From positions 50,227 to 114,226 of IMG/VR virus record IMGVR_UViG_3300045988_122195: DNA of 64,000 nucleotides; one strand, written 5' to 3'. The position numbers and the translations under genes are program-made. The notes under the pieces were generated by a model, which was given only the letters and a program-made list of their open reading frames with translations, ran no database searches and had not been told where the DNA came from. This DNA comes from a virus. This document shows, in pieces, positions 990 to 50,379 of the stretch (position 1 is its first letter; every line of letters starts with the position of its first letter).

Positions 990-1379
990 ATGAATTTAAT
1001 TTTTCATTCGGTTTTTGTCGAAGTAGAGAATAAACAATCAGGAGGCGAAGTTGAAATGAAAATATCTGAATTACAAGCAGTTTGTAAGTACGATGACAGT
1101 GAAATGGATGAAGTTAAAAACTGCCATCCAAAACAGATTGCAAGTGAAGTAATTCCTATTCCAACTTGGAAGATTAAATATAAGTATACAACTGCTCGTG
1201 GAAATCCAAAAGAAGCAGTAAAGTATATGTTCTTAGATAAGAATGCCTGGGATTCTGTCGATCAGGAATTCATGAATTATATAGAAGAACTTAACGAAAA
1301 ACATCCGGAAAGAATGGCATCAAACGTAGAAATTCTTGATGCAGTTTATTTCGGAAAACTTTATTTAGAACTTGAATAA
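990..1379 (+). CDS. hypothetical protein
   Basis: 129-aa ORF, compact spacing after previous gene, RBS-like aggaggcg inside suggests possible internal start; no recognisable motif. Confidence 0.55.
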   Translation: MNLIFHSVFVEVENKQSGGEVEMKISELQAVCKYDDSEMDEVKNCHPKQIASEVIPIPTWKIKYKYTTARGNPKEAVKYMFLDKNAWDSVDQEFMNYIEELNEKHPERMASNVEILDAVYFGKLYLELE

Positions 1380-1574
1380 TAAATATTTTTCAATTGTAAT
1401 CAAATCCCTGTAATCAGGGTTGTACAGCGAGATGGCTTGTATTACCCAAGCAGCATAGCGACATAAGGTTAAAACGTAAAATCTTACACCATGACCTAAA
1501 ATAATTGGATTCTAAGAATAAGATAAACTCCTTTAACTAATTGGTAAAATCCAAAAGTTAAAGGAAGATTACAA

Positions 1575-2855
1575 TTGAATCCGATATACGATGAATACAT
1601 TAAATTTTTAAAAGACACTTCTGGCGAAGAATTACCTTATTTAAAAGAAGGTTTCTTCTGGCTTGATAAACAGATTATAAAAGGTTTTGATAGTCAATTT
1701 GTAGAACATAAATTTTACAGAGTTAAAGTATCAGATAACCTAGAAAAAGTAGAAATTCTAAAATTAAAATCTTATGAAGATCCATCTGAAGTAGACCTAA
1801 TAGATTGGAGAACAATGATCAACATCAAAGAAAATCATTTGAGAGAAATTGAACATGAAGCTTTATGCCTAATATGTGAAAAGATCAAAGATTATGATGT
1901 ATATACTCCAATAATACCTGTTTCTATGGGTAAAGATTCTATGGTTACATGTCATTTAGTTCGACAACTATATCCAAACACAAAAGCAATATTTAACAAC
2001 ACATCACTTGATTGTACTGACACATATAAGATGGTTAAACGATTTCCGAATTGCGAAATTATGAATCCAGACAAAGGGTTCTATCAATATGTAAAATCTG
2101 ATTCTATGATTCCGTCAAGATTTTCAAGATTCTGTTGTAGGATTTTTAAAGTTGGAGTTATGGTTTCTCAACTTGATAATAAGCATCCGTATTTAATTTT
2201 TATGGGAATGAGAAATGAAGAATCAAATACAAGAAGCAATTATCAAGACGAATGGGTTAATACTTCAGAATGGGGAGACACATGTTGGCAAGGAATACTT
2301 CCTATTAGAAAGTGGACGGAATTGGATGTTTGGCTTTATATATTTTGGAGAAATATTGAAGTTAATCCAAAATATAAAAAAGGATATTCAAGAGTTGGAT
2401 GCCATTGTGCTTGCCCGTACTATGCGAAGTCAACATGGATTCTTGATAGATATTGGTATCCAAAAGCATATAAAAGATGGAGAAATATTCTAAGAGAAGA
2501 TTTTATTAACAATCAGAAATGGTTGATTATGAACTGTACACTCGAAGAGTATCTTACTCAAGCATGGAATGGTGGCGTGTTCAGAAGTGAGCCAACACAA
2601 GAAGTGATTGACGAATTTGTAAAGTATACAGGAATTGATAAACAGATTGCGCTGCAATATTTTAATAAGAAATGTTGTGAGTGCAATAAGAGAATAAAAC
2701 ATAAGGAAGTTCTTTCAATGAACTTAAAAATACATGGAAGACAAGTTAGTAAATTCTATTGTAAGAAATGTTTGATGAAAGAATTCGATTGGACACAAGA
2801 AGATTGGGACAAGCAGGTGGAGTCGTTTAAGGCTCAAGGTTGTGCGTTGTTCTAG
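1575..2855 (+). CDS. PAPS reductase-like / PP-loop ATP pyrophosphatase family protein with Cys-rich C-terminal extension
   Basis: 426 aa; PP-loop-like motif VSMGKDSMV (SGGxDS-type); C-terminal CHCACPYY and CCECNKR...CKKC cysteine clusters; TTG start in track. Confidence 0.7.
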   Translation: MNPIYDEYIKFLKDTSGEELPYLKEGFFWLDKQIIKGFDSQFVEHKFYRVKVSDNLEKVEILKLKSYEDPSEVDLIDWRTMINIKENHLREIEHEALCLICEKIKDYDVYTPIIPVSMGKDSMVTCHLVRQLYPNTKAIFNNTSLDCTDTYKMVKRFPNCEIMNPDKGFYQYVKSDSMIPSRFSRFCCRIFKVGVMVSQLDNKHPYLIFMGMRNEESNTRSNYQDEWVNTSEWGDTCWQGILPIRKWTELDVWLYIFWRNIEVNPKYKKGYSRVGCHCACPYYAKSTWILDRYWYPKAYKRWRNILREDFINNQKWLIMNCTLEEYLTQAWNGGVFRSEPTQEVIDEFVKYTGIDKQIALQYFNKKCCECNKRIKHKEVLSMNLKIHGRQVSKFYCKKCLMKEFDWTQEDWDKQVESFKAQGCALF

Positions 2856-2885
2856 GTTTTATTGGTAGAAAGGTGGTGAAAAGTA

Positions 2886-3242
2886 GTGTATCCGAGTGAG
2901 TTTTTTAAGAATTGTTCTCTAAGGACAGGAATTGACGTATTTGAAATTTATGATACAGATTTAAAAGAAAAATTAAAAAATGTGCATCCAAAGAATTTCT
3001 TAAAAACAACAATCACATTGCCAGTATATAAAGTCAATTTATCCTATCGTACTGAAAAAGATAATTACAAAACAGTTGACAGATATGCAGTAATGGACTC
3101 AAGTGCAGAAGATGAGTATTTTGATTTCTGGATTGATATGCTTATAAGAGATTATAACAGTAATAATCCAAATCATAAGATGGTAGATTGTGAAATAAAC
3201 AGCATTGAAAGACTTTGCGAAGCTGTGCTACCAATTGGTTAG
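2886..3242 (+). CDS. hypothetical protein
   Basis: 118-aa ORF between the two PP-loop genes; no motif recognised. Confidence 0.5.
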   Translation: MYPSEFFKNCSLRTGIDVFEIYDTDLKEKLKNVHPKNFLKTTITLPVYKVNLSYRTEKDNYKTVDRYAVMDSSAEDEYFDFWIDMLIRDYNSNNPNHKMVDCEINSIERLCEAVLPIG

Positions 3243-3421
3243 CTTTTCACCATATGTATTTAATACCTTTGTGCAGCAAAGGTTGTCACGATGATTTATA
3301 GAAGACGGATCATTGGTTAATATAAATCGAAAAAGCAATGTGATAGTGACGTAAAAAGACACTCACGAAGTATGGCTTTGCCTCATTGAAATGAAATAAA
3401 TTTCAGTGAGGAAAGTACATA

Positions 3422-4432
3422 TTGGTACAGAAAGCTAATACAATTGAGGAATTATTAAAAGGTTGTCCTGTAAATCAAACGATTTGTGATAATTTGATTC
3501 GTGCATGGGCAATTATCAACAATGATAAATATGAGAAAATCATTTGTTCAATTTCAGGCGGTTCAGACAGTGATGTGATGTTAGATATCGTTTGGAGATG
3601 TGACAAAGACAATAAAGTAGATTATGTATGGTTTGATACTGGATTAGAATATCGAGCCACAAAAGAGCATTTAAAATATCTTGAAGAAAAATATGATATT
3701 ACGTTTCATTCTTATAGGGCTATAAAACCTATTCCAACGTCCTGCAAGGAATATGGACAACCGTTTTTATCAAAACAAGTCAGTGAATTTATCCAAAGAT
3801 TACAAAAACATAATTTTCAATGGGAAGATGAAGATTTCAACACATTATATAAGAAATATCCAAAATGTAAGTCTGCCTTAGAGTGGTGGTGTTGTAACAA
3901 AGGTAATGACAGTTGCTTTAATATTACCAGGAACAAATGGTTAAAAGAATTTATGGTTGCTAATCCACCAACATTTAATATTTCAAACAAGTGTTGTAAA
4001 TATGCAAAAAAAGATGTTGCACATAGCATTGTAAAGTATGGAATAGACGGTAAATTATTTGATCTACAGATTATAGGTATTAGGAAAGCTGAAGGTGGTG
4101 CTAGATCAACAGCGTACAAATCATGCTTTGACGACAATAATGACATTGACAATTATAGACCTCTATTCTGGTACAAAGATTCAGATAAAGAAGATTATGA
4201 GAAAGTGTATGGAATTGTTCATAGTGATTGTTATTCGGAATATGGTTTAAAGCGCACTGGTTGCTGTGGTTGCCCTTATGGTAGAGATTTTGAGAATGAA
4301 TTAGATGTAATTAAGAAGTATGAACCTAAACTGTATAAAGCAGTAACAAATATTTTCAAGGATTCTTATGAATATACAAGAAAGTATGTGGAGTTTAGAA
4401 AAATGATGGATGAGAAGGAGAGAATAAGATAA
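3422..4432 (+). CDS. PAPS reductase-like / PP-loop ATPase family protein (paralog of 1575..2855)
   Basis: 336 aa; canonical PP-loop ISGGSDSDVMLDIV; C-terminal CCGCPYG cluster; TTG start preceded by gaggaaag RBS. Confidence 0.7.
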   Translation: MVQKANTIEELLKGCPVNQTICDNLIRAWAIINNDKYEKIICSISGGSDSDVMLDIVWRCDKDNKVDYVWFDTGLEYRATKEHLKYLEEKYDITFHSYRAIKPIPTSCKEYGQPFLSKQVSEFIQRLQKHNFQWEDEDFNTLYKKYPKCKSALEWWCCNKGNDSCFNITRNKWLKEFMVANPPTFNISNKCCKYAKKDVAHSIVKYGIDGKLFDLQIIGIRKAEGGARSTAYKSCFDDNNDIDNYRPLFWYKDSDKEDYEKVYGIVHSDCYSEYGLKRTGCCGCPYGRDFENELDVIKKYEPKLYKAVTNIFKDSYEYTRKYVEFRKMMDEKERIR

Positions 4433-4674
4433 TGAAAATTAAAAACCTTAAAGACGTAGAAACATTTCTCAATGTAGTAAATGAATGCAAAGGCGATGTA
4501 ACTCTTACATCACAGTATGGAGATAAATTCAATCTTAAATCTGCATTGACACAGTATGTAGCTATTGCAGCGTTAGTCGGAGAGCATGGTGATGAACTTG
4601 AGCTGTGGTGTTCCGATAAGGAAGATGAGATGAAATTTCTCAAGATGTTTGATGAGAATCCAGAGATGGTATAG
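4432..4674 (+). CDS. hypothetical protein
   Basis: 80-aa ORF; start ATG overlaps stop of upstream gene (ataATGa); translational coupling. Confidence 0.5.
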   Translation: MKIKNLKDVETFLNVVNECKGDVTLTSQYGDKFNLKSALTQYVAIAALVGEHGDELELWCSDKEDEMKFLKMFDENPEMV

Positions 4675-4828
4675 ATATAGAGAATAAATAAAATATAACC
4701 ACTATATGTTGTGTTGCTAATAGTATATATAGTATACTGGAGCATACATATATACAATATATAGTGATAAAATCACGACGAAATTCTTGGTAATGTGTAC
4801 ATAGATATGGAACAGGATGGTGAATAAT

Positions 4829-4984
4829 AATGAAGTTAAAACAGGTAAATAAATGTAGAGAATGTTTATATTATCATGATAAAAACAATACTTGTCAGTC
4901 TAAAAAATGTTCAACTTACGGGCATGGATATGTTAACTGGTGGGATCAATTGTTTTGCAAACCGTATAAAGGAGAAAATAAATA
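4829..4984 (+). CDS. small Cys-rich protein (not in ORF track, <60 aa)
   Basis: ATG at 4829 ... MKLKQVNKCRECLYYHDKNNTCQSKKCSTYGHGYVNWWDQLFCKPYKGENK, preceded by gga RBS-like; CxxC..C..C pattern. Confidence 0.3.
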
Positions 4985-5248
4985 ATGAAAATATTAGCGG
5001 TACATAATTACCATATCAAGAAAATAAAAACAGAAAGAGAATATTGTTGTTCATGCAGTAAATGTGGCACAGTCTTTGTTTTTGAAAGGTCTGAAGTAAC
5101 TATCCCAAGATGTATTAATCCGAAGCCTGAATATTGTACTATTATGTGTCCTAATTGTAAAAACATCATGTCATTAGATGTATGCAATGAATTCATTACA
5201 ACTGAAGACAAAGAGAATTTCTACAAACAATATATGGATAATATATAA
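4985..5248 (+). CDS. zinc-ribbon protein
   Basis: 87 aa; CCSCSKCGT ... CPNCKN cysteine pairs; RBS ggagaaaataaataATG. Confidence 0.5.
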   Translation: MKILAVHNYHIKKIKTEREYCCSCSKCGTVFVFERSEVTIPRCINPKPEYCTIMCPNCKNIMSLDVCNEFITTEDKENFYKQYMDNI

Positions 5249-5291
5249 AATTTTGGTTTCATTTTAGCTGGCTCTCGTCATTGAGAGTCAG

Positions 5292-5720
5292 TTGACTAAA
5301 AGGAGAAGAATAATGATAGAACTTAATGTAAATTTTGAAGAATTGGAACACATGGATTTAGAGGAAGCTAAGGAAATCGTAAGCCACTTCAACAATGAAG
5401 ATTGGTATGAAGAACTTGGAGCAACCGTTAATGGTGTTGAATATGGTTTAGATATTGTAGATGATGGTGATTGGGACGACCAAGGAAAATATCAGTACAA
5501 AGATGTAACAGGTATTTTGTGTAAAACCTCAGAAGATGGTTCAGTTACAAAATATGATATTGCAGTCACACAATATATCACAAGATGTGGTTCTTACTTC
5601 TCTGAATATAACTATGAGTACGTACCATTACAAGTAGATCAGTTAGTTCAGAAAGTAATTTCACAGCAGATTATTCCAGAGAGAACGGTGGTTACTTTTG
5701 CAGATAAGGAGAATAATTAA
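5292..5720 (+). CDS. hypothetical acidic protein
   Basis: 142-aa ORF; RBS aaaggagaagaataATG. Confidence 0.55.
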   Translation: MTKRRRIMIELNVNFEELEHMDLEEAKEIVSHFNNEDWYEELGATVNGVEYGLDIVDDGDWDDQGKYQYKDVTGILCKTSEDGSVTKYDIAVTQYITRCGSYFSEYNYEYVPLQVDQLVQKVISQQIIPERTVVTFADKENN

Positions 5721-5721
5721 T

Positions 5722-5952
5722 ATGAGAATTATTAGCCAGGATAAAACAATTGACGTTCCTTATGACAATGTTGTGCTTACAATTGAGCCAACAAGTTTTA
5801 AAGGAAGTGACGATGTAGATATCTATGCTAAATATTATGGCGAACGATACCACATGGCTACATATGGAAGTATGGATAGAGCTGTTAGTGTTGTGAAAGA
5901 TATCTACAGTTCATTTGATAATAAGAAATATTACACGATGTACACAATATAA
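5722..5952 (+). CDS. hypothetical protein (track ORF 5698..5952; ATG at 5722 after aggagaataattaat RBS is the likelier start)
   Basis: ORF track plus RBS position. Confidence 0.5.
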   Translation: MRIISQDKTIDVPYDNVVLTIEPTSFKGSDDVDIYAKYYGERYHMATYGSMDRAVSVVKDIYSSFDNKKYYTMYTI

Positions 5953-6017
5953 TTAGATGGGCTGTGTGGTAGTCAAACATTGCGCAGCTATTCACAAATA
6001 TGGAGAGAATAATAATT

Positions 6018-6275
6018 ATGGCAAAGCAAACAGAAGATTATTTATCACTCAAACCACTTGCAGAAAGATTCCAAGAAGCTGCGAACAGAATTACAGATGA
6101 AGAATTGGATTGTATTATTCGCTCAAAAATTAAAGAACAGATTGAAGAGCAAATAGATTTCAGTTCTTTGGGAATAGCAATCGAAGAAACTGTTGAGAAC
6201 TGGCTTGATGATAACGAAAATTGTAACTTTGTTTTGGACACATTAAAGAAAAGTATAGAAAGGAGATTACGCTAA
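6018..6275 (+). CDS. hypothetical protein (track 6000..6275; internal ATG 6018 MAKQTED follows ggagagaataataatt)
   Basis: ORF track, RBS. Confidence 0.5.
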   Translation: MAKQTEDYLSLKPLAERFQEAANRITDEELDCIIRSKIKEQIEEQIDFSSLGIAIEETVENWLDDNENCNFVLDTLKKSIERRLR

Positions 6276-6634
6276 TGACCACAGAAGAAATGAATCAGAG
6301 AACATTGTTCCTCATTAAAAATATTATTGAGAATGGGTTTGATCTTATCGAAAATCCGGAAGATTATGAAGAATATGGATTTAATGCTTGGCAGGTTTTA
6401 GCTAAAATCAGTGGAATTCTTGTTGCGTTAAATGAATTTGAAGAAAAAGATATAAAGAAAAATTCTTACGAATCTGCAATTTTAGAAACTAAAAATCAAA
6501 CTATAGGAAAATTAGCTAATAACATTACAGTTGCAATCAATCGTTATAACAGTATGTTGCCTATATCCGATGGTAGAAGAATTGACGAGTGTAAAACTGT
6601 AAATGATGAATACATTTACGAATTTGTGAGGTAA
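6275..6634 (+). CDS. hypothetical protein
   Basis: 119 aa; start overlaps previous stop (gctaATGa). Confidence 0.55.
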   Translation: MTTEEMNQRTLFLIKNIIENGFDLIENPEDYEEYGFNAWQVLAKISGILVALNEFEEKDIKKNSYESAILETKNQTIGKLANNITVAINRYNSMLPISDGRRIDECKTVNDEYIYEFVR

Positions 6635-6640
6635 TGAATT

Positions 6641-7357
6641 GTGAAGAGACAGATTAGAAGATGTGTATTTGAGACTAATTCGTCAAGTATGCATTCTCTT
6701 TGTGTGATGAAAATAGATGAATATTATACACCAGAAGAAATCTCTAAGAATTTCTTTTTGTGGAACAACAAAGAAACAGGTGAAGAAAAGTGTGAATGGC
6801 ATATTTGGGATGGAGATTTAGAGTTTGGCAGAAGTCCTTTCAGAGTATTATGTAATTTCCATGATAAATGGTTATATGCTTGTGCCTCATTAGTAAGAGA
6901 ATATAATGATGAGACATATAAAGAATTAGAATCAATTGCATTAAAGCATGTTCCAGGACTTAAAAAGGTTGTTATTCCTATGGTTTCGGATTCATTCGCT
7001 GATAAAAACCATCCAGAGAATAAAGATAATGATTATGCACAGGAATATGGTAAAACAGAGGACGAGCTTAATGAATGGCTTGAACAGAAAGAAAAAGCAT
7101 GGGGTATTGATACACTTACATATTGGGAAAGTGAGAATGGATATTTTCATTTTGAAAAACCTTTTATGGGTTGTGTTGACAAAAATATCTTAGGCGGTTT
7201 TCTTGAGAAAGAGAATATATCATTAGAGGAATATTTAATCAATAAAAAGTATGTTGTTATTCAGGATGGTGATGAATATTGCGAGTTTGGCAACTTCAAA
7301 AGAAGTGGTTTGATCAATTTAGATGTGATTGAGCATGAATATCCAAAAGAATATTAA
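6641..7357 (+). CDS. conserved hypothetical protein, paralog A (N-terminal motif QIRRCVFETNSSSMH)
   Basis: 238 aa, GTG start; N-terminal 20 residues nearly identical to next ORF. Confidence 0.6.
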   Translation: MKRQIRRCVFETNSSSMHSLCVMKIDEYYTPEEISKNFFLWNNKETGEEKCEWHIWDGDLEFGRSPFRVLCNFHDKWLYACASLVREYNDETYKELESIALKHVPGLKKVVIPMVSDSFADKNHPENKDNDYAQEYGKTEDELNEWLEQKEKAWGIDTLTYWESENGYFHFEKPFMGCVDKNILGGFLEKENISLEEYLINKKYVVIQDGDEYCEFGNFKRSGLINLDVIEHEYPKEY

Positions 7358-10495: not shown

Positions 10496-11611
10496 ATGAA
10501 GGACATTAAGATTGTAATCGGTTCAAACTTTGGTGATGAAGGCAAAGGTCTTATGGCGGATTATTTCTCTCAAAAACCGAATAGTATTGTTGTGTGTTCT
10601 AATGGTGGAGCGCAAAGAGGACATACTGTAGTTACCTCAACTGGAATCAGACATGTCTTTCATCATTTTGGATCTGGAACTTTTAATGGGGCAGACACAT
10701 ATCTCTCAGAGGATTTTATCTGCAATCCGATTATTTTCAGACAAGAATATAATGAACTAAAACATTTGGGATATTATCCGAACATCTATATAAATCAAAA
10801 CTGTATGGTAACAACCCCATATGATATGATGGCTAATCAAATTATTGAAGAAAATCGTGGAAAGAATAAGCATGGAAGTTGTGGTCTTGGAATTTATGAG
10901 ACAATCAAAAGATATAAAGCCGGAGTAACTACTTTGTATGTCTCCGATTATATCCGAGATTATTACTTAAAGATTTTCAACAGAGAAGGAATTGTCTTAA
11001 CAAAGAAATGGGAAGATTTGTTCAATGATTCAGGAATTTACGATCATTATTTAGAAGATTGGGATTTTATGAACGAAGTAGCAACAACGATTTCTGACGA
11101 ATGTTTTCTCAATGAGTATGAGAATATAGTATTTGAAGCTGCACAAGGTCTTTTACTTGATCAAAATAATCTGAAATATTATCCACATCTTACACCTTCT
11201 AACACAGGAATAAAAAATCCAAAGAAAATAATTGAAAATGTGAAATGGGACGATGATATTAACATTGAGACATGTTATGTGTCAAGGACATATTTAACAA
11301 GACATGGAGCAGGACAATTTCCATCTGAATGTCGCAAGAATCGAATAAATAAGTCAATGTATGATAAGACAAATGTTCCGAATCCATTCCAGGACACATT
11401 AAGATACGGAACGCTTGATTTGAAAGATTTATATATTCGATGTGCTAAGGATGTGATGAATTTTGGAGACAAGAAATCAATTGCTATAACACACTGTAAT
11501 GAATACAAAATTGATGTTGAGGAATTAGAAGATATCTTTGAAGGATGGAATATTTATTATTCTAACGGAGAAACGCACGATGATATGAGGGAGGGCGCTA
11601 TATGGAATTGA
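10496..11611 (+). CDS. adenylosuccinate synthetase (PurA) family protein, C-terminally short; candidate PurZ-like
   Basis: 371 aa; GSNFGDEGKGLMADYF (PurA P-loop GDEGKGK), GGAQRGHT (PurA GGHNAGHT), FEAAQGLLLD (PurA FEGAQGTLLD), PSNT, HGAGQFPSE (PurA GAGPFPTE); lacks about 60 aa of PurA GTP-binding C-terminus. Confidence 0.75.
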   Translation: MKDIKIVIGSNFGDEGKGLMADYFSQKPNSIVVCSNGGAQRGHTVVTSTGIRHVFHHFGSGTFNGADTYLSEDFICNPIIFRQEYNELKHLGYYPNIYINQNCMVTTPYDMMANQIIEENRGKNKHGSCGLGIYETIKRYKAGVTTLYVSDYIRDYYLKIFNREGIVLTKKWEDLFNDSGIYDHYLEDWDFMNEVATTISDECFLNEYENIVFEAAQGLLLDQNNLKYYPHLTPSNTGIKNPKKIIENVKWDDDINIETCYVSRTYLTRHGAGQFPSECRKNRINKSMYDKTNVPNPFQDTLRYGTLDLKDLYIRCAKDVMNFGDKKSIAITHCNEYKIDVEELEDIFEGWNIYYSNGETHDDMREGAIWN

Positions 11612-28185: not shown

Positions 28186-29355
28186 TTGGAAAATAAAGAA
28201 AGAGCATTAGCACACGTAGAAAAGATTGAGTGGATCAAGCCGATAGAAGGAGCTGATAATATTGAACTTATTGGAGTTTTGGGGTGGGTTTGTATCGCCA
28301 AAAAGAATGAATTTAACGTAGGAGATATGGCTGTTTATATTGAGATTGACAGCAAATGTCCAGAAACAGATGAAAGATTTGCATTTTTAGCAAATAAGAA
28401 ATTCAAAGTTAAGACTATGAAACTTGGAAAGTTCAAAGTGATTAGTCAGGGATTAGCTTTACCATTGTCACTTTTCCCAGAATTACAGGACAAAAAGATT
28501 GGTGATAATGTTACAGAAGCATTAAAAATTACTTATGTTTCAGAAGAGGATGCCGCAAGAAAGACTAATAAGATTGATCCAAATGCCAAATATAAGTCAA
28601 TGGCAAGGCGTAGACCAAAATTATTTTCAAATCCAATTGTTAGAATGATTATGAGATATAGCATTGGTCGAAAGATTATGTTTATGCTGTTTGGTCGTAA
28701 GAAAGATAATCCAAAGAAATTTCCAGATTGGATTGTTAAGACTGATGAGACTAGAATTGAGAACGCACCATTCTATCTTCAGACTACAGAAAAGTGGATT
28801 AAAACTGAGAAATGCGATGGAACAAGTTGTACATTTGCCGTTGATAGATTGAAGAAAGGAAAGGACAAATTTGACTTTATTGTATGCAGCAGGAATGTAA
28901 GACAGGCTGATAGAGAACAGGATCGTTATCACGAATCAAATATTTATTGGGAATTATCCGATAAATATGATATTGAAAAAATTCTCACACAGTTTGCGAT
29001 AGAGAACAATTATAACAGAGTTGTATTACAAGGTGAAGGTGTTGGTTCAGTTCAGGGTAATCCATATAAATTTACAGAAAATAAGTTGTTTGTATTCAAT
29101 CTGATTATTGATGGTGTAAGAGTCGGAACAATGGAAATGGCTGATTTCTGTAAGAACCACGGTTTAACAAGTGTACCAATTATTGATACGGCTTATGAAC
29201 TCCCAAAGACTATGGAAGAAATGAAGCTTGAAGCTGATGGATATAGCGAATTAAATCCAAAGGTCAAGAGAGAAGGATTTGTATACAGGACACAGAACGG
29301 ACAGCAGAGTTTTAAAAATGTAAGTCGTGAGTATTTGTTAAAACATAATGGATAA
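28186..29355 (+). CDS. ATP-dependent RNA ligase-like nucleotidyltransferase (KxDG motif I, roughly 200-aa N-terminal domain)
   Basis: 389 aa; motif I KTEKCDGTSCTFAVD (K-x-D-G-x-S); TTG start after taaggtaagaggaac. Confidence 0.6.
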   Translation: MENKERALAHVEKIEWIKPIEGADNIELIGVLGWVCIAKKNEFNVGDMAVYIEIDSKCPETDERFAFLANKKFKVKTMKLGKFKVISQGLALPLSLFPELQDKKIGDNVTEALKITYVSEEDAARKTNKIDPNAKYKSMARRRPKLFSNPIVRMIMRYSIGRKIMFMLFGRKKDNPKKFPDWIVKTDETRIENAPFYLQTTEKWIKTEKCDGTSCTFAVDRLKKGKDKFDFIVCSRNVRQADREQDRYHESNIYWELSDKYDIEKILTQFAIENNYNRVVLQGEGVGSVQGNPYKFTENKLFVFNLIIDGVRVGTMEMADFCKNHGLTSVPIIDTAYELPKTMEEMKLEADGYSELNPKVKREGFVYRTQNGQQSFKNVSREYLLKHNG

Positions 29356-29395
29356 TAGGTGATTATGTAATTTTTATGTTTAAAGGAGATTTTAA

Positions 29396-30286
29396 ATGAA
29401 TAAACCAACATTATGGGTTATGGTCGGTTTGTCTGGAAGTGGCAAATCAAGTGTCGCAAAAGAAATTGCAGAGAATAATCCTGATACAGTTACTATATCA
29501 TTAAACAATATTCGTGAAGAATTAACTAGTAAAGTAGAAGATCAATCTAAAAACGAAGAAATATTCAAAGTATTTCACAAAAGAATCCGTGAGGCATTGG
29601 AGAATAATACTAATGTGATTGCTGATGCTACAAACATTACAATGAGGTCAAGACGAGCAATTATTGAAAATATTAAAGGTATTGAATGTCGTAAGATTGC
29701 TTATCTGATTCCAAAACCGTTTGATCAATGTAAGATTGATAACCTGAATAGACAACATCCTGTGCCTAAAGAAGTGTTAGACAAACAGATTAGAAAATTC
29801 CAGATTGTGTTTTATGAGGAAGGTTGGGATCTTATTAGAAGCTGTGGCTTCCTTAGAGATGATGAGATAACAATTCCAGATATATCTTTAAAAATGGAAA
29901 ATTTTGACCAAAAGAATCCACATCACACTATGAGTTTGCTTGAGCATAGTGATTATACATACAAATTGTTCGCTGACAAAGAATATCCAATGAGTTTTCA
30001 ATTAGGAGCGTTGCTTCATGATGTTGGTAAACTATATTGTCAAACTTTTGATGAATCTGGAATTGCTCGTTACCTTGACCATAATTCGATTGGAAGTTAT
30101 GTTATTTTGACAAGTCTTGATAGGTTCTATCATTACGACATCATTGATGCTTGTTTTCTTATCAACTATCATATGATGCCCTTTAATTGGACAACAGAAA
30201 AATCTAAGGAACGTTGGAAGAAAAGGTTTGGAGAATATAAATATCAGATGCTTTTAGATTTTCATGAATGTGATAAAGCGAGGTGA
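29396..30286 (+). CDS. P-loop polynucleotide-kinase-like domain fused to HD-domain phosphohydrolase
   Basis: 296 aa; Walker A VMVGLSGSGKSSVAKE; HD motifs HHTMSLLEHSDY and LGALLHDVGK. Confidence 0.65.
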   Translation: MNKPTLWVMVGLSGSGKSSVAKEIAENNPDTVTISLNNIREELTSKVEDQSKNEEIFKVFHKRIREALENNTNVIADATNITMRSRRAIIENIKGIECRKIAYLIPKPFDQCKIDNLNRQHPVPKEVLDKQIRKFQIVFYEEGWDLIRSCGFLRDDEITIPDISLKMENFDQKNPHHTMSLLEHSDYTYKLFADKEYPMSFQLGALLHDVGKLYCQTFDESGIARYLDHNSIGSYVILTSLDRFYHYDIIDACFLINYHMMPFNWTTEKSKERWKKRFGEYKYQMLLDFHECDKAR

Positions 30287-30639
30287 GACGCATGAGATGT
30301 AATACAGATTTAGAGACTTGGCTGCATGATTTCGAAGATGATATATTTCGTATCTTAGTTTACAGAAAGCCTGGTCAGTACACACCATATGAGATGGAGA
30401 ATAAGTTTAGTGATGAATCGTTGTATGTAAACAATGAGTACAAGAAAGTATTTATTGAAGATGTAATTGAACTACCGGACAAAGATGTTCTGATTGGATT
30501 CAGAGAAGTTCTTGATGTGAATCAACACGAAGATGGGGAATATGAATGCGAACTTGCAGATAGCATTGAATATTATAAGTTATCAGAAATCAAACTGGAA
30601 TGTTTCAAGTGTGATCAAGTGATAGGAGGTGAGTTTTAA
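30283..30639 (+). CDS. hypothetical protein
   Basis: 118 aa; overlaps previous stop (ATGAGATG). Confidence 0.5.
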   Translation: MRRMRCNTDLETWLHDFEDDIFRILVYRKPGQYTPYEMENKFSDESLYVNNEYKKVFIEDVIELPDKDVLIGFREVLDVNQHEDGEYECELADSIEYYKLSEIKLECFKCDQVIGGEF

Positions 30640-31063
30640 TATGGTATCAAGTCAGATTATTGATGTAATCAACGAATTGTGTAGTAAGTTCGGAATTGCA
30701 ATTGATTGGTCACAGAAAAACGTGCAGCCTTATTTGGAAAGTCTTGTGGTAAAAGCTGTAAATTATGAATTATATACGTCTATTATGTGGATTGTAATCG
30801 GAGCAATTCTAATCGGAATAGGTTTATTTTATTTGTCAAAAGCCAATAAGTGTAAGGAGAGATATATAAAATATAAAAAAGATTCCACTGTTGACACTGA
30901 AAGTGATTATACATGTAAAGATTTATACAGAATATTAGGTTGGTTTTTATTTATAACTGCTATCCTTTTTATTATATACAATACAAATGATGTTATTAAA
31001 TGTATTACATTTCCAGATAAAGTTGTGTTTGATATGATTTATAGTTATTTACCAACTAATTAA
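30629..31063 (+). CDS. membrane protein (2-3 TM)
   Basis: 144 aa; TM SIMWIVIGAILIGIGLFYL and ILGWFLFITAILFIIY. Confidence 0.5.
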   Translation: MSFNMVSSQIIDVINELCSKFGIAIDWSQKNVQPYLESLVVKAVNYELYTSIMWIVIGAILIGIGLFYLSKANKCKERYIKYKKDSTVDTESDYTCKDLYRILGWFLFITAILFIIYNTNDVIKCITFPDKVVFDMIYSYLPTN

Positions 31064-31070
31064 ATGGAGG

Positions 31071-31337
31071 ATGGACATGGAAGTATTTCAAAATATTATG
31101 ATTATCTTCTTGACTGCACTACTACTCGGAATTTTAATCGCATTTTCAATTCTATTGGAAAAATTCGTAGAACTTTCAGATGAAGTACATAAGAAACTCT
31201 TTGAGATGTCAGTAGAGAATAATACAAATGTGGATGATGGATTCATTCTTGGAGATGAATTCTTAACAGAAGATGAATTGATGAATGAAAACGATGAAGA
31301 TTCAGGAGAAGAATTCGGAGTTTATTCTGAACGATAA
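31071..31337 (+). CDS. small membrane protein with acidic C-terminus
   Basis: 88 aa; TM IMIIFLTALLLGILIAFSILL; DE-rich tail. Confidence 0.45.
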   Translation: MDMEVFQNIMIIFLTALLLGILIAFSILLEKFVELSDEVHKKLFEMSVENNTNVDDGFILGDEFLTEDELMNENDEDSGEEFGVYSER

Positions 31338-31554
31338 AAGAGTAATAGTATTATGGGTATACGTTAAATATGAGGACAAATTCTTGCCGTAATCGTTCAA
31401 GATTAACAATTGGATACTGAAAAATAAAAAAACTGAATTTGCTATGTGTATATATTAAATAGTAAGCAATATATGATGTGTTTTTTGAACTTAAATTAGC
31501 TTAATTAAACTAACTAATTTTTGTATAAATATTTAAAAAAGAGGAGAAAGAAAA

Positions 31555-33135
31555 ATGGTAAATGAGATTATTAATGGACTTGGTGTTTTAGTTCCTGTAG
31601 TGATTGTAGGAGCAGGTGGAATTGGAATTGTTGGTTCTGGATATGTAAAAGCATCGCCAGATAAAGCCTATATCATTTCTGGTTTAAGAAAAGATCCAAA
31701 AGTTCTTATTGGAAAAGCTGGGCTTAAGATTCCATTCTTTGAAAAGAAAGACGAGCTAAATCTTCAGTTAATTCCAATCGATGTAAAAACATCAAGCGCA
31801 GTTCCAACAGCAGATTACATCAACATTAACGTTGATGCAGCAGTAAATGTAAAGGTTAGTAGTGACACAGATAGACTTAAACTTGCAGCAGAGAACTTTC
31901 TTAATAAACCAACTGACTACATTGGACAGGTTGCAAGAGAAGTTCTTGAGGGTAATATGCGTGAAATTGTTGGCAAAATGAACTTGGAAGAAATGGTTTC
32001 TGATCGTCAGAAGTTTGCAGAACTCGTAAAAGAAAATGCTGAACCAGATCTTGCTGCAATGGGACTCGACATTGTGAGCTTCAATGTACAGAATTTTGTT
32101 GATGAAAATGGAGTAATTGAAAATCTTGGTGTTGATAACATTGTTAAAATCCAGAAGAATGCAGCTATTTCAAGAGCTGATAGCGAAAAAGAAATTGCTA
32201 AGGCTCGTGCTATGGCTAAAAAAGAAGCAAATGATGCAGAGGTAGCTTCTGAATTGGAAATTGCAAATGCTCAGGCTGAAGCACAGAAAAAGAAAACAAT
32301 TGTACAGGCTAATGCCGATAGAGAGTCAAGAGAAGCTCAAATTGCAGCAGACACACTTATTGCGCAGAAAGAAAATGAACTTGAAATTAAAAAAGCAGAA
32401 CTTCAGAAAGATGCTGAAACAAAAAAGGCTTCAGCGGATGTAGCTTATAGTATTCAGGAACAAAATGAAAGAAAATCTGTGGAGATTGCAACGGCAGATG
32501 CTGATCTTGCCAAACAGGAAAAAGCTGTAGAGATTAAGGAGAAAGAGATTGCACTTACAGAAAAAACTCTTGAAGCCACTGTAAAGAAACAAGCTGAAGC
32601 AGAAAAATATGCAAAACAGCAGGAAGCAGATGCAAGGCTGTATGAAACACAGAGAAAATCAGAAGCAAGTCTTTTTGAGAGACAGAAAAATGCTGAAGCA
32701 GAGAAGTTTGAGCGTGAGAAAGAAGCTGAAGCTATGAAAGCGACAGCAGAAGCTAACAAATATGCAATGGAACAAGAGGCGGAAGGTATCCGTAGTAAAG
32801 GACAAGCTGAAGCTGATGCAATCAAAGCAAAAGCTCTTGCAGAAGCAGAAGGTATTCAGAAGAAAGCAGAAGCAATGAAACAGATGGGTGAAGCAGCAGT
32901 TCTTGATATGTATTTCAAAGCTATGCCAGAAATCGCTAAGAATATTGCAGAACCTCTTGCCAAAGTTGACAAAATTACAATGTATGGAGATGGAAACTCT
33001 TCAAAATTGATGAAAGATATCATGAACACCCTTAATCAGGTTACAGATGGTATGAAAGAGTCAACTGGAATCGACTTAAATTCTATTCTTGCAGGTTTTG
33101 CAGGTGCTAAAATTGCTGAATCTACAGACAAATAA
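31555..33135 (+). CDS. floT: flotillin (SPFH domain, FloT/YuaG-like)
   Basis: 526 aa; N-terminal hairpin anchor GLGVLVPVVIVGAGGIGIVGSGYV, SPFH core incl. EVLEGNMREIVG and GLDIVSF, long EA-rich coiled coil (AEAEKFEREKEAEAMKA), C-terminal KVDKITMYGDGN; collinear with B. subtilis FloT as recalled. Confidence 0.85.
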   Translation: MVNEIINGLGVLVPVVIVGAGGIGIVGSGYVKASPDKAYIISGLRKDPKVLIGKAGLKIPFFEKKDELNLQLIPIDVKTSSAVPTADYININVDAAVNVKVSSDTDRLKLAAENFLNKPTDYIGQVAREVLEGNMREIVGKMNLEEMVSDRQKFAELVKENAEPDLAAMGLDIVSFNVQNFVDENGVIENLGVDNIVKIQKNAAISRADSEKEIAKARAMAKKEANDAEVASELEIANAQAEAQKKKTIVQANADRESREAQIAADTLIAQKENELEIKKAELQKDAETKKASADVAYSIQEQNERKSVEIATADADLAKQEKAVEIKEKEIALTEKTLEATVKKQAEAEKYAKQQEADARLYETQRKSEASLFERQKNAEAEKFEREKEAEAMKATAEANKYAMEQEAEGIRSKGQAEADAIKAKALAEAEGIQKKAEAMKQMGEAAVLDMYFKAMPEIAKNIAEPLAKVDKITMYGDGNSSKLMKDIMNTLNQVTDGMKESTGIDLNSILAGFAGAKIAESTDK

Positions 33136-33168
33136 TCTGTACATAATCTAATTTTATACATTTTAACT

Positions 33169-33705
33169 TTGCATAGTGTCACAGCTATGCAGAGTATTTC
33201 TAAAAATAATATGAGAGGAAGTGATTATGTGGTTAATTTAGAACCACAAATGATACAAAAAGTACAAAAGTGTTTAGAAACACATGTTGGTGGCGAAGCA
33301 TATTTTAATGAATTAGATGCTGCAATTAAATCAGATGAAAATCTTTTGAAGTCTTTTATTAATCGCATTGTCATAGAAACGAAGTGTCGCAACTTTGTAA
33401 TGTCAGGTGAAATTGGTGTTGTGTATTCTAAGTTATATTCATACGATGACATTCATTTATTGTTACTGCCAGGTGGCTTGAGACACGATAAAGAAATTCC
33501 TTATGACATTGGGAGAATATATGAAGGAATGGAATTTGTATTCGTAGATGATTCATATTACTCAGGAAAAACTTTAAATGCTGTGAAGAAATATATGGAA
33601 TCTACTGGTGCAAAGGTCATTGCAAATTATGTTTTCTACGATGGAAGTATGGAGAATAAAGATAATGTGAGATCAATTTACAGATATTACGATTATCACA
33701 AGTAG
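33169..33705 (+). CDS. phosphoribosyltransferase-fold (PRTase-like) protein
   Basis: 178 aa; PRPP-loop-like MEFVFVDDSYYSGKTLNAV; start may be ATG 33211. Confidence 0.5.
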   Translation: MHSVTAMQSISKNNMRGSDYVVNLEPQMIQKVQKCLETHVGGEAYFNELDAAIKSDENLLKSFINRIVIETKCRNFVMSGEIGVVYSKLYSYDDIHLLLLPGGLRHDKEIPYDIGRIYEGMEFVFVDDSYYSGKTLNAVKKYMESTGAKVIANYVFYDGSMENKDNVRSIYRYYDYHK

Positions 33706-34866: not shown

Positions 34867-35511
34867 ATGAGTACAATTGAGAAAATGACGGTTCACAAAG
34901 CATTGGCGGAGTTAAAGATTATTGATTCCAGAATAGAGAGATCAATTGATGATGCACAGTTCTGTGTGGCAAACAAACATTCTAATGAAAAAATTAATGG
35001 TATTCCGGTTGAAGATGCTAAGAAATTAATGGTAGGAAGCTACGATAAAGCATCTGATCTTATTAAGAGAAGAAATGCAATCAAGAGAGCGGTTGTTCTT
35101 TCTAACGCAAAGACAATTGTTACGATTGCAGACAGAGAATATACTGTTGCAGAAGCAATTGAGATGAAAAATCATGGCATTGACTTTGAGGAACTTCTTT
35201 TAAATGAAATGAGATGTCAATACGCAGACGCTAATAGAACTATCTCAGCAGAGAATGGCGAAAAACTGAGCGAAAGAGCAGATAAGTTTGTCATTGACAT
35301 GTATGGATCAAAAGAGGGTAAAACAAATACTGCTGATTTTGAGAAAGCAAAGAAAGATTTCATTACAGCGAATTCTTATGATCTGATTGATCCACTTGAT
35401 ATTAAGAAGAAGATTGATGGATTAGAAGAATATATCTCAAACTTCAAAACAGAAGTAGATGCTGTATTGAGTGTTAGTAATGCTATTACAGAAATTACTG
35501 TAGAGTATTAG
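34867..35511 (+). CDS. hypothetical protein
   Basis: 214 aa; RBS aaaggagaaaaatATG. Confidence 0.55.
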   Translation: MSTIEKMTVHKALAELKIIDSRIERSIDDAQFCVANKHSNEKINGIPVEDAKKLMVGSYDKASDLIKRRNAIKRAVVLSNAKTIVTIADREYTVAEAIEMKNHGIDFEELLLNEMRCQYADANRTISAENGEKLSERADKFVIDMYGSKEGKTNTADFEKAKKDFITANSYDLIDPLDIKKKIDGLEEYISNFKTEVDAVLSVSNAITEITVEY

Positions 35512-36149
35512 AGAATATATAGATAGGAAATTATTTCACTGTTTGCTGAAAACTTAGAACTACAATCATTCAGACTTTTGCAAGTATAGCCTGAATAAAA
35601 ATAATAAAGAAACTTGAAAACATCCTAAAGCATAAAAGGTAAGTAGAAAATATGTGAGAATGCTTGATGCACAGTGTCAAGCGTTATATTACAAGATGAC
35701 TGTAAAGAGTAAAGTTCAAATGTCAAGTAGTAAAGCTCAAAATTCAAAGATTATGTTTTGTGTAAAGTTTAAGTAACAAATAGTAAAGATATAAAGTTTT
35801 ATAAAATCTTCGATTAACAGTTTTTCAGTATGATTGTACTTGGCTGTAAGTTGTCTGCGAAGCTGGTAAATGGTGAATTAGTTTATAAGTGTCAGCCTGC
35901 ATAATAATATGCATAGTTGTCGTGTGGGTTGACAAATAAGCACCCAAGGTGATGCGGTACGTTGCACCTGGCTTATATCCAGCGATTCTCCGTTCGACTC
36001 GGAGTGGGTGTACTGTATCTGAATATTCACAGAATGTGTTATTCGTTTCCTTTCTTTCTATGAACATTCTAGTTCAGATGCAATGTTTTTCATAACTTCC
36101 TTTTTTGGGGGTTGGCAACTTACCCTGGAGACAAAAAAGTTGCAAATAA

Positions 36150-37438: not shown

Positions 37439-37521
37439 ACTGGAATGGCGGAATGGCAGACGCACTTGACTTAAAATCAAGCGGTGAAAACACCATACGA
37501 GTTCAAATCTCGTTGCCAGTA
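37439..37521 (+). tRNA. tRNA-Leu (anticodon TAA), type II with long variable arm
   Basis: Acceptor ACTGGAA/TGCCAGT (one A-G mismatch), D arm GCG-GAATGGCAGA-CGC, anticodon stem CTTGA/TCAAG with loop CTTAAAA, variable arm GGTG-AAAA-CACC, T arm ACGAG-TTCAAAT-CTCGT, discriminator A; no encoded CCA. Confidence 0.8.
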
Positions 37522-37674: not shown

Positions 37675-37744
37675 TGACTGTTAGCTCAGATGGGAGAGTA
37701 TCTATTGCAAGAGAGGGTCGCAGGTTCGAATCCTGTACAGTCAA
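37675..37744 (+). tRNA. tRNA-like element (possible tRNA-Cys GCA or Ala TGC, or pseudo-tRNA) with non-canonical anticodon arm
   Basis: Perfect acceptor TGACTGT/ACAGTCA, D arm GCTC-AGATGGGA-GAGT, canonical T arm GCAGG-TTCGAAT-CCTGT; only 19 nt between D stem and T stem, so no clean 5-bp/7-nt anticodon arm; contains TTGCAA. Confidence 0.45.
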
Positions 37745-38019
37745 CTCGTCGCAGAAGACATTTGATTTTTGCATTCATGTTTTGCACACCTCCTTTCTTA
37801 AAGTGCAAAGTAGGTTGTTAGTTCATTGGTAGAACATCTTATTGAAAAATAATGCAGTCCTGTTCTTTTCGCTTTCTCAACGATGTAATGCATTATAATA
37901 GGAAGAAACACGTTCGAGTCGTGTACAATCTATTAGTCTTGGTTGACTTACCACTTTCAAACGAGGACTTAAAATTCGGTAGTAAAGTGGAGAATAATAT
38001 TAATAGGTGGTGAAAAATT

Positions 38020-50000: not shown

Positions 50001-50379
50001 AGAACTTTCTTTAAAAGAAAAAATTGACAATCAGCATGAGATTCTTGGAATTATAAATATTGTAGATCCTGAAACAAACAAACGAATGTATTACGTGTCT
50101 GGTTTGGAAGTGTTAAAAACTGTTACAAACATTACTCTTTATGAAATCTACAGTGGTAAAACACGCCAAGTGAAGATGTGGACGAATCAATATAATAAAG
50201 AGCCTTTTGATGAAACTGATGTTCTATACATTATTTCCCTTGAGAAAAAGAATAAAAAAGAACCTACCGGTGAAATAAATCCAGAAACAGGTAAAAAAAT
50301 CTATGCAGATGTGCCAGATAAGTTTGAATATTGGCTCAAGAAATTCATAGTAAAGGAAAGTTTAGAAGATGATAGATAG
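47092..50379 (+). CDS. dnaE: DNA polymerase III alpha subunit (DnaE-type) with N-terminal PHP domain
   Basis: 1095 aa, GTG start; PHP signature FENYHCHKDFSNPTIADS; length/architecture of Pol III alpha. Confidence 0.8.
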   Translation: MERNKLIKEIIPTLNFKFPYETKDYCENLYFENYHCHKDFSNPTIADSGESIENYANRCHELKAKCLFSGEHGNQGNHFHVYTVAEKEKLRYRHSTEAYWVKDRHEKDRTNCHIVLVAKNAEGRRDINYALSMANIDGYYYRPRIDLELLMNIPKDNVIVTSACIAGWWYDDASDVWLKIHEHFQDNFFFEVQTNNTDPQKKLNERILRLSEKNGIDIIAGLDSHYINDVGEVKRDQILKYKKVTYPEEQGWFMDYPDMLTGLERFANQNVLDEKLALRAFMNTNVFVNECEEIVLDRSFKIPSMYKDKTYKEKCKIYMNDLNKAYSKEKIKSKDRADGIRYEAKEVMNSGVVDYFLTSKKIVEDAINNEGGILTTTSRGSAASYITNKLIGLTTVDRFNSDIPIYPERFLTKERVDAGMMPDIDLNISDQEPFIKATKKLLGEYGCMPLMAVEKLKKKAAWQLYAGANDVEPAMATQISKYIDEYEDALKYAEEEEKEFINVEDYIPEKYIDLFRKSNDYQGITINLKVHACGNLIFDGDIRREVGLITAISKTTGKRTLCACVEGGVLDDFGYVKEDFLIVDSVSLIYKCFKAIEREVPSFEELREMIKDDKPTWDIYEKGITCCVNQCEKASTTNKVKKYKPKTLAELSAFIAAIRPGFASLLNRFLNRSEYTTGEEKIDELLNDTAHFMLYQESIMKVLSFLGMKMGDTYGVIKSISKKKLKGEKKEKLLIELKKDWENEFGNLDNFSNVWSVIEDSAHYAFNSPHAYSMAGDSAYIAWFKAHHTSTFYEVAINHYQQKNKKDKINALIEESIKFYGYKLGDYKFGNDNRTVTVDEKNKLIYPNLSSVKGFGEGVVNTLYELGLKEYSSFIDVLTALTSNSINKTIINKLIRINYFDNYGDVNTLLQITTYFDLINGIKQMSKEKAIKNNIPFECLKKYGHETEKQFNKIDSVGLLNELVSNNKYKELSLKEKIDNQHEILGIINIVDPETNKRMYYVSGLEVLKTVTNITLYEIYSGKTRQVKMWTNQYNKEPFDETDVLYIISLEKKNKKEPTGEINPETGKKIYADVPDKFEYWLKKFIVKESLEDDR

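Follow-up and report, generated by a model that had tools for sequence, protein, structure and literature searches.

What a phage might gain from carrying a flotillin, and whether such a gene works alone or together with the genes around it, is the question raised by a stretch of viral DNA from IMG/VR record IMGVR_UViG_3300045988_122195 (positions 50,227 to 114,226). The whole stretch of 64,000 nucleotides (nt) is referred to here as the window; positions are 1-based and counted along it, and all genes of the flotillin region lie on the + strand. A preliminary description of this DNA had read a full-length flotillin at 31555..33135, grouped it with two small membrane proteins upstream and a protein of phosphoribosyltransferase (PRTase) fold downstream, and suggested that the four might form a membrane-remodelling, superinfection-exclusion or anti-defence module. 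Flotillin itself is a known protein; what the analysis brings forward is a phage-borne, host-derived copy which is recurrent, strongly selected and functionally unexplored.

The flotillin gene, its spread and its origin

The flotillin gene (31555..33135, + strand) encodes 526 amino acids (aa) from an ATG start, with the ribosome-binding site AGAGGAG 8 nt upstream. Its product can be divided into a Gly-rich membrane hairpin (residues 4-31), an SPFH/Band_7 domain (approximately 50-211), a coiled coil rich in Ala, Glu and Lys (approximately 216-445) and a Flot block (417-483 and beyond). The hairpin segment is hydrophobic, with a mean hydropathy of 2.3, and the 230-residue stretch between residues 216 and 445 is made up of 23% Ala, 18% Glu and 15% Lys. 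Bacterial flotillins are anchored in the membrane by a hairpin and eukaryotic flotillins by acylation. Matches to the Pfam families Band_7 (PF01145; 78.8 bits against a cutoff of 23.6, residues 50-211) and Flot (PF15975; 39.5 bits against a cutoff of 27, residues 417-483) were obtained for the open reading frame (ORF), and the cryo-electron microscopy chains of human flotillin-1 and flotillin-2 matched the phage protein with E-values of 1.5e-51 and 1e-43. The search with hidden Markov models which the preliminary description had proposed as a check therefore placed Band_7 and Flot in this ORF, and Pribosyltran in its downstream neighbour, all above the Pfam cutoffs. The two domains, the matches to flotillins in the PDB, the hairpin and the coiled coil together confirm that this phage genome encodes a true flotillin of full length at ORF 31555-33135. 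The earlier claim of a full-length flotillin is thus upheld by Band_7, Flot, the N-terminal hydrophobic segment and the Ala/Glu/Lys-rich coiled coil, and the two motifs quoted in its support, EVLEGNMREIVG and GLDIVSF, are both found in the ORF.

The genome around this gene has a G+C content of approximately 32% and long ORFs that are overwhelmingly on the + strand; its replication and nucleotide genes include a DNA polymerase (phrog_405), a DnaB-like helicase, a RecJ-like exonuclease and NrdD. A megablast search of INPHARED gave no close sequenced phage for either the flotillin region or the replication block, and the closest relatives were found in IMG/VR, namely locus L028 on a 105.6-kb contig and locus L029 on a 204.8-kb contig. 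Given the phage replication genes and the size of the contigs that carry these relatives, the setting is that of a large uncultivated phage.

The preliminary description had considered flotillins to be essentially unknown as phage genes, which was too strong. IMG/VR was searched twice, a first scan giving 38 loci and a profile-based scan giving 61 loci with a full-length flotillin, whilst in a curated phage collection 11 of 50,697 records were matched by tblastn, two of them (csAssE-Sib and Vibrio phage KIT04) annotated as “flotillin family protein.” The flotillin-bearing IMG/VR contigs are mostly 90-205 kb in length, the longest being 424 kb. Measured by identity to the window flotillin, at least five lineages can be told apart among the phage proteins: group A, to which the window itself belongs along with L028 and L029 (98%); group B (88-90%); group C, with a protein of 486 aa at 35 loci (63-65%); and several further lineages (43-63%). 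The entries in nr for the group C proteins read “hypothetical protein [Caudoviricetes sp.],” and their nearest bacterial relatives, at approximately 70% identity, include Longibaculum, Coprobacillus and other Lachnospiraceae. Flotillins are thus seldom met in cultured phages and turn up repeatedly in large gut phages; they are present in the databases and uncharacterised. Papers that remark on phage SPFH genes call their role unclear (PMC13239085, PMC13384950), and a search of the literature found no functional study of a phage-encoded flotillin, only passing annotations.

Chromosomal flotillins of Lachnospiraceae are 79-86% identical to the phage protein at the amino acid level, over 94-100% of its length, and phage and host proteins align collinearly from end to end. 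A scan of one genome per species gave 80 loci, amongst them those of Bariatricus, Dorea, Catenibacillus, Schaedlerella arabinosiphila (on a 6.3-Mb contig) and Lachnospiraceae bacterium M18-1 (on a 2-Mb scaffold), and the neighbours of the bacterial genes are ordinary chromosomal ones, for example folate and alcohol dehydrogenases, asparagine synthase, two-component systems, GlmS, ThrRS and a P-type ATPase. Neighbour joining placed the window group and group B within the Lachnospiraceae clade, beside sequences from Bariatricus and Catenibacillus, and two insertions in the coiled coil, of 33 and 11 residues, are common to the window flotillin and this clade. The high identity, the nesting in the tree and the clade-specific insertions all argue that the phage flotillin is host-derived, from Lachnospiraceae.

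The capture is not recent, as three observations indicate. Nucleotide similarity to the bacterial loci is confined to 31592-33135, within the ORF, and reaches 77.6% at most; synonymous differences from the closest bacterial genes, with a proportion of 0.70-0.79, are at or beyond saturation; and the G+C content at third codon positions (GC3) of the flotillin gene is 0.23, a phage-like value, the bacterial copies ranging from 0.25 to 0.89. The gene has also been kept with little change. Between the window flotillin and those of L028 and L029 the synonymous distance (dS) is 0.13-0.19 and the ratio of non-synonymous to synonymous change (dN/dS) is 0.039-0.051, and within group C the latter ratio is 0.045-0.080. 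In 81 bacterial orthologues, 294 alignment columns reach a conservation of 95% or more; 284 of these are retained in the window flotillin, and the 10 changes are mostly conservative. Low dN/dS combined with the retention of these columns is the signature of a working protein that keeps its ancestral biochemistry. The preliminary description had named a recent host-derived insertion with flanking host sequence as the finding that would overturn it; no host flank was seen, GC3 is shifted and purifying selection is strong, and a recent insertion or a chimeric assembly could be ruled out on the same evidence.

A proposed role in the infected cell

The reading that we favour, and hold to be on balance probable, is that the flotillin was captured long ago from a Lachnospiraceae host by large (approximately 100-200 kb), low-GC gut phages and has been kept as a stand-alone auxiliary gene which supplements the upkeep of the membrane. 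FloA and FloT are under the control of sigma-W; their genes are induced by membrane stress, of which phage infection is one form, and the proteins regulate the fluidity of the membrane (PMC8581546). By analogy we infer a membrane-scaffold role that would keep the membrane of the infected cell working. During infection the N-terminal hairpin would anchor the phage flotillin in the inner leaflet of the host membrane, and its SPFH domain and EA-rich coiled coil would mediate oligomerisation, either by itself or together with host flotillin. The phage flotillin would then act as flotillins do in Firmicutes, on membrane fluidity and on the organisation of membrane-bound machinery under envelope stress, and in doing so would supplement the host function, as other phage copies of host proteins do. 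The outcome would be a membrane that stays functional until lysis, over a long infection.

This reading should be considered with caution, as several points weigh against it. The function of bacterial flotillin is itself debated. The curated cutoff of the NCBIfam FloT equivalog (NF058507) was missed, at 278.3 bits against 700 (E 1.3e-82), and by that threshold the phage protein would be classed as homologous to FloT and not as its equivalog. A Gly-rich hairpin, described below, suggests that the phage flotillin may not behave exactly like the host protein. Lastly, the placement of phage flotillins by counter-defence cassettes, and once by xis/int, fits a role in conflict as well as it fits membrane upkeep.

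Such a role could consist in counter-defence, the flotillin shielding the membrane from membrane-disrupting effectors of abortive infection or blunting membrane-based immunity, and so buying time for replication. We regard this as unlikely. In its favour, in several independent lineages the flotillin lies in accessory regions full of known or likely counter-defence genes. The neighbours vary from one phage flotillin to the next and are typically of the accessory or counter-defence kind. Group C has an NAD+ cassette 400 bp upstream of the flotillin in 17 of its 35 loci (among L007-L038), at approximately 1300-5600, which comprises nicotinamidase-like, Prs/Adps-like (phrog_619), NAMPT/Namat-like (phrog_448) and NadE (NAD synthetase) genes, joined in some loci by a Macro-domain gene; in the same slot this cassette alternates with a radical-SAM-like gene. 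An NAD+ cassette is also found downstream of the flotillin in the group B locus L003 (8000-12544), and upstream of it L133 carries NAMPT-like, PRTase-fold (a weak Pfam match), NAD synthetase and nicotinamidase-like genes (3626-7226). The Prs-like and NAMPT-like families make up the NARP1 system of NAD+ reconstitution, which is a counter-defence (bioRxiv 10.1101/2024.02.11.579819; PMC13586617), and the cassettes beside phage flotillins can be called NARP1-like by gene family, their activity being predicted only.

Genes for RNA repair also recur, as an RNA ligase (Rnl) and a polynucleotide kinase/HD protein in the window, as RlaP, a CCA-adding enzyme and RtcB in L133, and as RlaP in L161, and DNA methylases are encoded close by in L002, L003, L028, L029 and L134. 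A calcineurin-like metallophosphoesterase adjoins or lies near the flotillin in three further lineages (L170, 4541-5185; L175, 874-1425; L186, 2286-2897). Directly 3' of the group C flotillin there is always a gene for a 244-aa membrane-anchored coiled-coil protein (e.g., L005, 7476-8210), and no other flotillin partner was seen to be strictly conserved; a PspA/IM30 identity of this protein was sought in Pfam and, by phmmer, in the PDB, with negative outcome. The recurrence of counter-defence and RNA-repair neighbours gives the anti-defence idea of the preliminary description some footing, as an association and not as proof. However, the argument is one of guilt by association, and large phages cluster many unrelated accessory genes. 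The near-identity of the phage flotillin to a housekeeping protein of the host favours an ordinary biochemical activity over that of a specialised inhibitor. PADLOC-DB v2, a library that covers defence and not anti-defence, held no match to the flotillin or its three proposed partners at E<=0.01.

The Gly-rich hairpin (6-8 Gly in 24 residues) is encoded at window 31564-31647 (residues 4-31) and is also found in L004-L038, P0002-P0017 and P0268. The 24 residues of the window flotillin that precede the conserved GYVKASPD read INGLGVLVPVVIVGAGGIGIVGSG, with 8 Gly, and the equivalent hairpin of group C is IEVIGTVVPVVIAVGGVGAIIGSG, with 6 Gly, whereas in the 85 chromosomal orthologues the count is 1-4 Gly throughout (mean 2.0) and the hairpin is rich in Leu, Ile and Val. 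Amongst the database matches, 31 proteins have hairpins with at least 5 Gly. The genomic context was checked for five such flotillins, one of which lies on a contig too short to judge, and in all four judgeable cases proved to be mobile DNA, either phage or integrative element. L133 is a phage contig that encodes an antirepressor and RtcB as well as NAD salvage genes; L134 is a phage contig with PAPS reductases and methylases, as in the window; the third contig consists of small ORFs, with PcfJ, YonG and LemA among them; and L131 (8001-12463) is the end of an integrative element, the flotillin standing beside a Tn916-type excisionase and two tyrosine integrases. The L131 flotillin is 83% identical to that of the window, and ordinary bacterial genes follow the integrases. 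As a universal phage signature the Gly-rich hairpin was rejected, since group B and the lineages at 43-63% identity have ordinary hairpins; it is restricted to mobile elements and not required by them.

One can imagine the Gly-rich flotillins of mobile elements as a tool of conflict, the altered anchor building or re-targeting microdomains and thereby protecting the membrane of the infected or lysogenised cell from membrane-disrupting abortive-infection effectors or excluding rival phages, although we think this quite unlikely. If it were true, the flotillin would belong to a new class of factors that act at the membrane in counter-defence or exclusion, and would travel with cassettes for NAD+ reconstitution and RNA repair.

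A related proposal is that the phage flotillin co-assembles with the host flotillin, to which it is 80-86% identical, and that its Gly-rich hairpin relocates or disables the host assemblies, with changed lysis timing, changed secretion or superinfection exclusion as the outcome. The confinement of the hairpin to flotillins of mobile elements (the window group, group C, P0002-P0017 and P0268, and none of the 85 chromosomal orthologues) fits this proposal, as do the four contexts in phage or integrative-element DNA and the copy at the cargo end of an integrative element beside xis/int, a typical site for exclusion genes. However, the ordinary hairpins of group B and of the lineages at 43-63% identity make the variant dispensable for the phage role, and the strong conservation of the whole protein fits a normal function, so that we consider a takeover of the host assemblies to be decidedly improbable.

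As regards the favoured reading, of a host-derived flotillin that supplements membrane upkeep, its wider interest lies in the fact that the role of bacterial flotillin is still argued. A phage that keeps a near-exact copy of the host protein under strong selection shows that the protein is worth carrying, and it would likewise be of worth during infection in at least five lineages of large phages. Through loss or exchange of the gene, the phage flotillin offers an experimental handle for finding which membrane process fails. Considering the NAD+ and RNA-repair neighbours along with an anchor that is Gly-rich in mobile elements only, membrane integrity may be one of the fronts in the conflict between phage and host.

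The genes on either side of the flotillin

Two small genes precede the flotillin. The first (30629..31063, +) encodes a 144-aa protein with two hydrophobic segments which matches phrog_23747 (4.5e-25), and the second (31071..31337, +) an 88-aa protein whose single hydrophobic segment is N-terminal and whose tail is acidic; the family databases gave no match for this second protein. The hydrophobic segments agree with the earlier wording of two small membrane proteins. Their position had further been likened to that of the NfeD/YuaF partners in bacterial flotillin operons, and this analogy falls on three counts. Neither ORF has a Pfam match to NfeD (PF01957) at E<=0.01; the architecture is wrong, the tail of the 144-aa protein past its last hydrophobic segment being 24 residues; and the upstream genes are not conserved between near-identical phages. 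Relative to L029, in which the flanks abut, window 30641-31076 with the 144-aa gene is a clean insertion, and in L028 window 30547-31533 is swapped for unrelated sequence. The 88-aa gene is shared only with L029, at 85% identity, and is absent from all other loci. Homologues of phrog_23747 are found in Clostridioides phages of approximately 130 kb, the records of which have no flotillin match, and also in L127, again without a flotillin. NfeD was found neither in eight genes adjoining the flotillin in other phage lineages nor beside the two donor-type bacterial flotillins with tabulated neighbours (five loci).

Between the 88-aa gene and the flotillin lies a spacer of 217 nt (31338..31554, +) with the Shine-Dalgarno sequence AGAGGAG at 31541-31547. 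The preliminary description had called this an AT-rich, promoter-like region; the AT-rich spacer is indeed there, but the promoter could not be sustained, as a sigma-70 scan gave no site in 31338-31554 and the number of sites in the region (31) was in line with that expected by chance (27.7 ± 5.4). The RNA of the spacer folds into less structure than its shuffles (z +1.9) and Rfam gave no match within it, so that both a promoter and a structured RNA were rejected here, none of the three analyses having given anything above chance. The spacer is conserved in L029, and in L028 only from 31534 onward.

On the other side, 33 nt beyond the flotillin and collinear with it in the window, L028 and L029, lies the PRTase-fold gene (33169..33705, +), the real start of which is probably the ATG at 33187 or later. 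The preliminary description had recognised in it the loop of type I PRTases that binds phosphoribosyl pyrophosphate (PRPP), and the sequence FVFVDDSYYSGKTL is present in the ORF. The Pfam match to Pribosyltran barely passes, at 27.6 bits against a cutoff of 26.3; the AlphaFold2 model has a mean local confidence (pLDDT) of 88.3 and a predicted template-modelling score (pTM) of 0.83, and the PDB matches listed by Foldseek for this model were APRT, OPRT, HGPRT and PurR, at a probability of 1.0 and a template-modelling score (TM) of approximately 0.5. The gene belongs to a family of 196 homologues of approximately 170 aa on large phage-like contigs, in which the motif DDSxxSGxT is invariant (42 sequences). 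A type I PRTase fold is thus confirmed for this ORF. The possibility that the gene is a relic of an NAD+ cassette, derived from a Prs/Adps-like gene, was rejected (hhalign probability 0.8%).

Whether these genes belong together was addressed by clustering the + strand ORFs of the 38 IMG/VR loci and the window, and by searching the neighbours of the window flotillin against the loci. Among these 38 other flotillin-bearing viral loci the PRTase gene occurs in two (L028 and L029), the 88-aa gene in one (L029) and the 144-aa gene in none, and the loci added by the profile-based scan gave the same outcome. The flotillin is the sole gene common to all synteny groups; the DNA similarity of group B to the window starts and stops inside the flotillin ORF, and neither the PRTase nor the small genes have a homologue at the bacterial flotillin loci. 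The comparative genomics that the preliminary description had recommended thus goes against its four-gene module, there being no co-occurrence beyond the window, L028 and L029. Conversely, homologues of the PRTase (41-49% identity) are found on other large phage-type contigs without a flotillin, where they neighbour a YorF-like gene, or a PurZ-like gene and YqeY, or a P-type ATPase and TerD, and L134 has a flotillin 83% identical to that of the window, followed at its 3' side by a homologue of window orf64, without a PRTase homologue anywhere in the locus. In the window (34867-35511, +) and in the distant phage-like contig L124 (553-1185), a gene for a phrog_1491 protein (“tail fiber protein”) stands no more than a few kb away from the PRTase gene, the identities between the two contigs being 47% for the phrog_1491 protein and 43% for the PRTase-fold gene. 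This arrangement suggests that the PRTase belongs to a phrog_1491-bearing backbone and not to the flotillin, and functionally the two genes are not tied.

The four genes are adjacent and co-oriented, and with the short, collinear interval between flotillin and PRTase this could be taken to mean one functional module of the kind formed by NfeD and flotillin operons. We consider this very improbable: co-occurrence breaks down outside three nearly identical loci, the 144-aa gene is an insertion seen in the window only, the upstream slot is replaced in L028, flotillin and PRTase each occur without the other, and NfeD is lacking here as it is beside the donor-type bacterial flotillins. The adjacency is on this evidence local gene order in one shallow lineage, in which the PRTase and the small membrane genes are not partners of the flotillin, and a tidy four-gene module can be an accident of such order. 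That the flotillin is an artefact of mis-assembly or a decaying, neutral passenger is scarcely credible, for although its high identity to host proteins could suggest contamination, the same gene stands in the same phage backbone on independent IMG/VR contigs, with a phage-like GC3, no host flank, an intact ORF and a dN/dS of approximately 0.05.

Wider setting and comparison with known systems

The DNA 5' of the flotillin region encodes an HNH endonuclease and, as a pair of the tRNA-repair type (28186-30286, +), an RNA ligase with a polynucleotide kinase/HD protein. In L029 (3588-4470) the interior of the kinase/HD gene has been swapped out, its first 29 and last 28 codons remaining. A PurZ-like homologue of adenylosuccinate synthetase (10496-11611, +; phrog_1211, E 6e-70) and two PAPS-reductase-like genes (1575-2855 and 3422-4432, +) hint that the window phage may have modified DNA bases; a PurZ-like gene also lies close to the PRTase homologue in L126 and L127. 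Just 3' of the phrog_1491 gene there is a RAGATH-27 RNA (35535-35618, +), a match exactly at the Rfam gathering score (76.1 bits, E 2e-9), which is followed by a cluster of tRNA genes (35940-36013, 37439-37521 and 37675-37745, +). The cluster includes a tRNA-Ile(TAT), called by ARAGORN only and without an Rfam match at E<=0.1, a tRNA-Leu(TAA), and a third tRNA recognised by Rfam (45 bits) without an anticodon call from ARAGORN.

Amongst known systems, the NfeD-SPFH operons of B. subtilis (yuaF-floT and yqeZ-floA) likewise have small membrane-protein genes 5' of the SPFH gene. The window differs from them in having no NfeD domain, a tail of only 24 aa and upstream genes that are unconserved between near-identical phages. 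With the type I PRTases (APRT, OPRT and PurR) the downstream neighbour shares the fold and the invariant PRPP loop, DDSxxSGxT; however, it is only 10-16% identical to the solved PRTases and has a three-helix N-terminal part. Eukaryotic flotillin-1 and flotillin-2 (PDB 9bq2 and 9l3g) can be aligned with the phage protein over the SPFH domain and part of the coiled coil, and this homology, although distant, supports a similar oligomeric membrane-cap assembly for the phage flotillin.

The closest likeness is to the chromosomal “flotillin family protein” of Lachnospiraceae, of FloT/YuaG type, with which the phage flotillin shares architecture, length, collinearity and the clade-specific insertions of the coiled coil. 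The two tabulated donor-type bacterial flotillins stand alone without NfeD, as the phage flotillin does. The differences are that the phage copy is phage-encoded, has the codon composition of a phage and has a hairpin that is Gly-rich (VGAGGIGIVGSG) and not rich in Leu, Ile and Val. The flotillins of csAssE-Sib (OR575929) and Vibrio phage KIT04 and the SPFH lipoproteins of phrog_200 are likewise phage-borne SPFH proteins with no assigned function (PMC13239085, PMC13384950). Phrog_200 matches the window flotillin in the SPFH domain only (E 5e-6), and the annotated phage flotillins are 24-27% identical to it over the SPFH half, whereas the window flotillin is a near-copy of its host orthologue.

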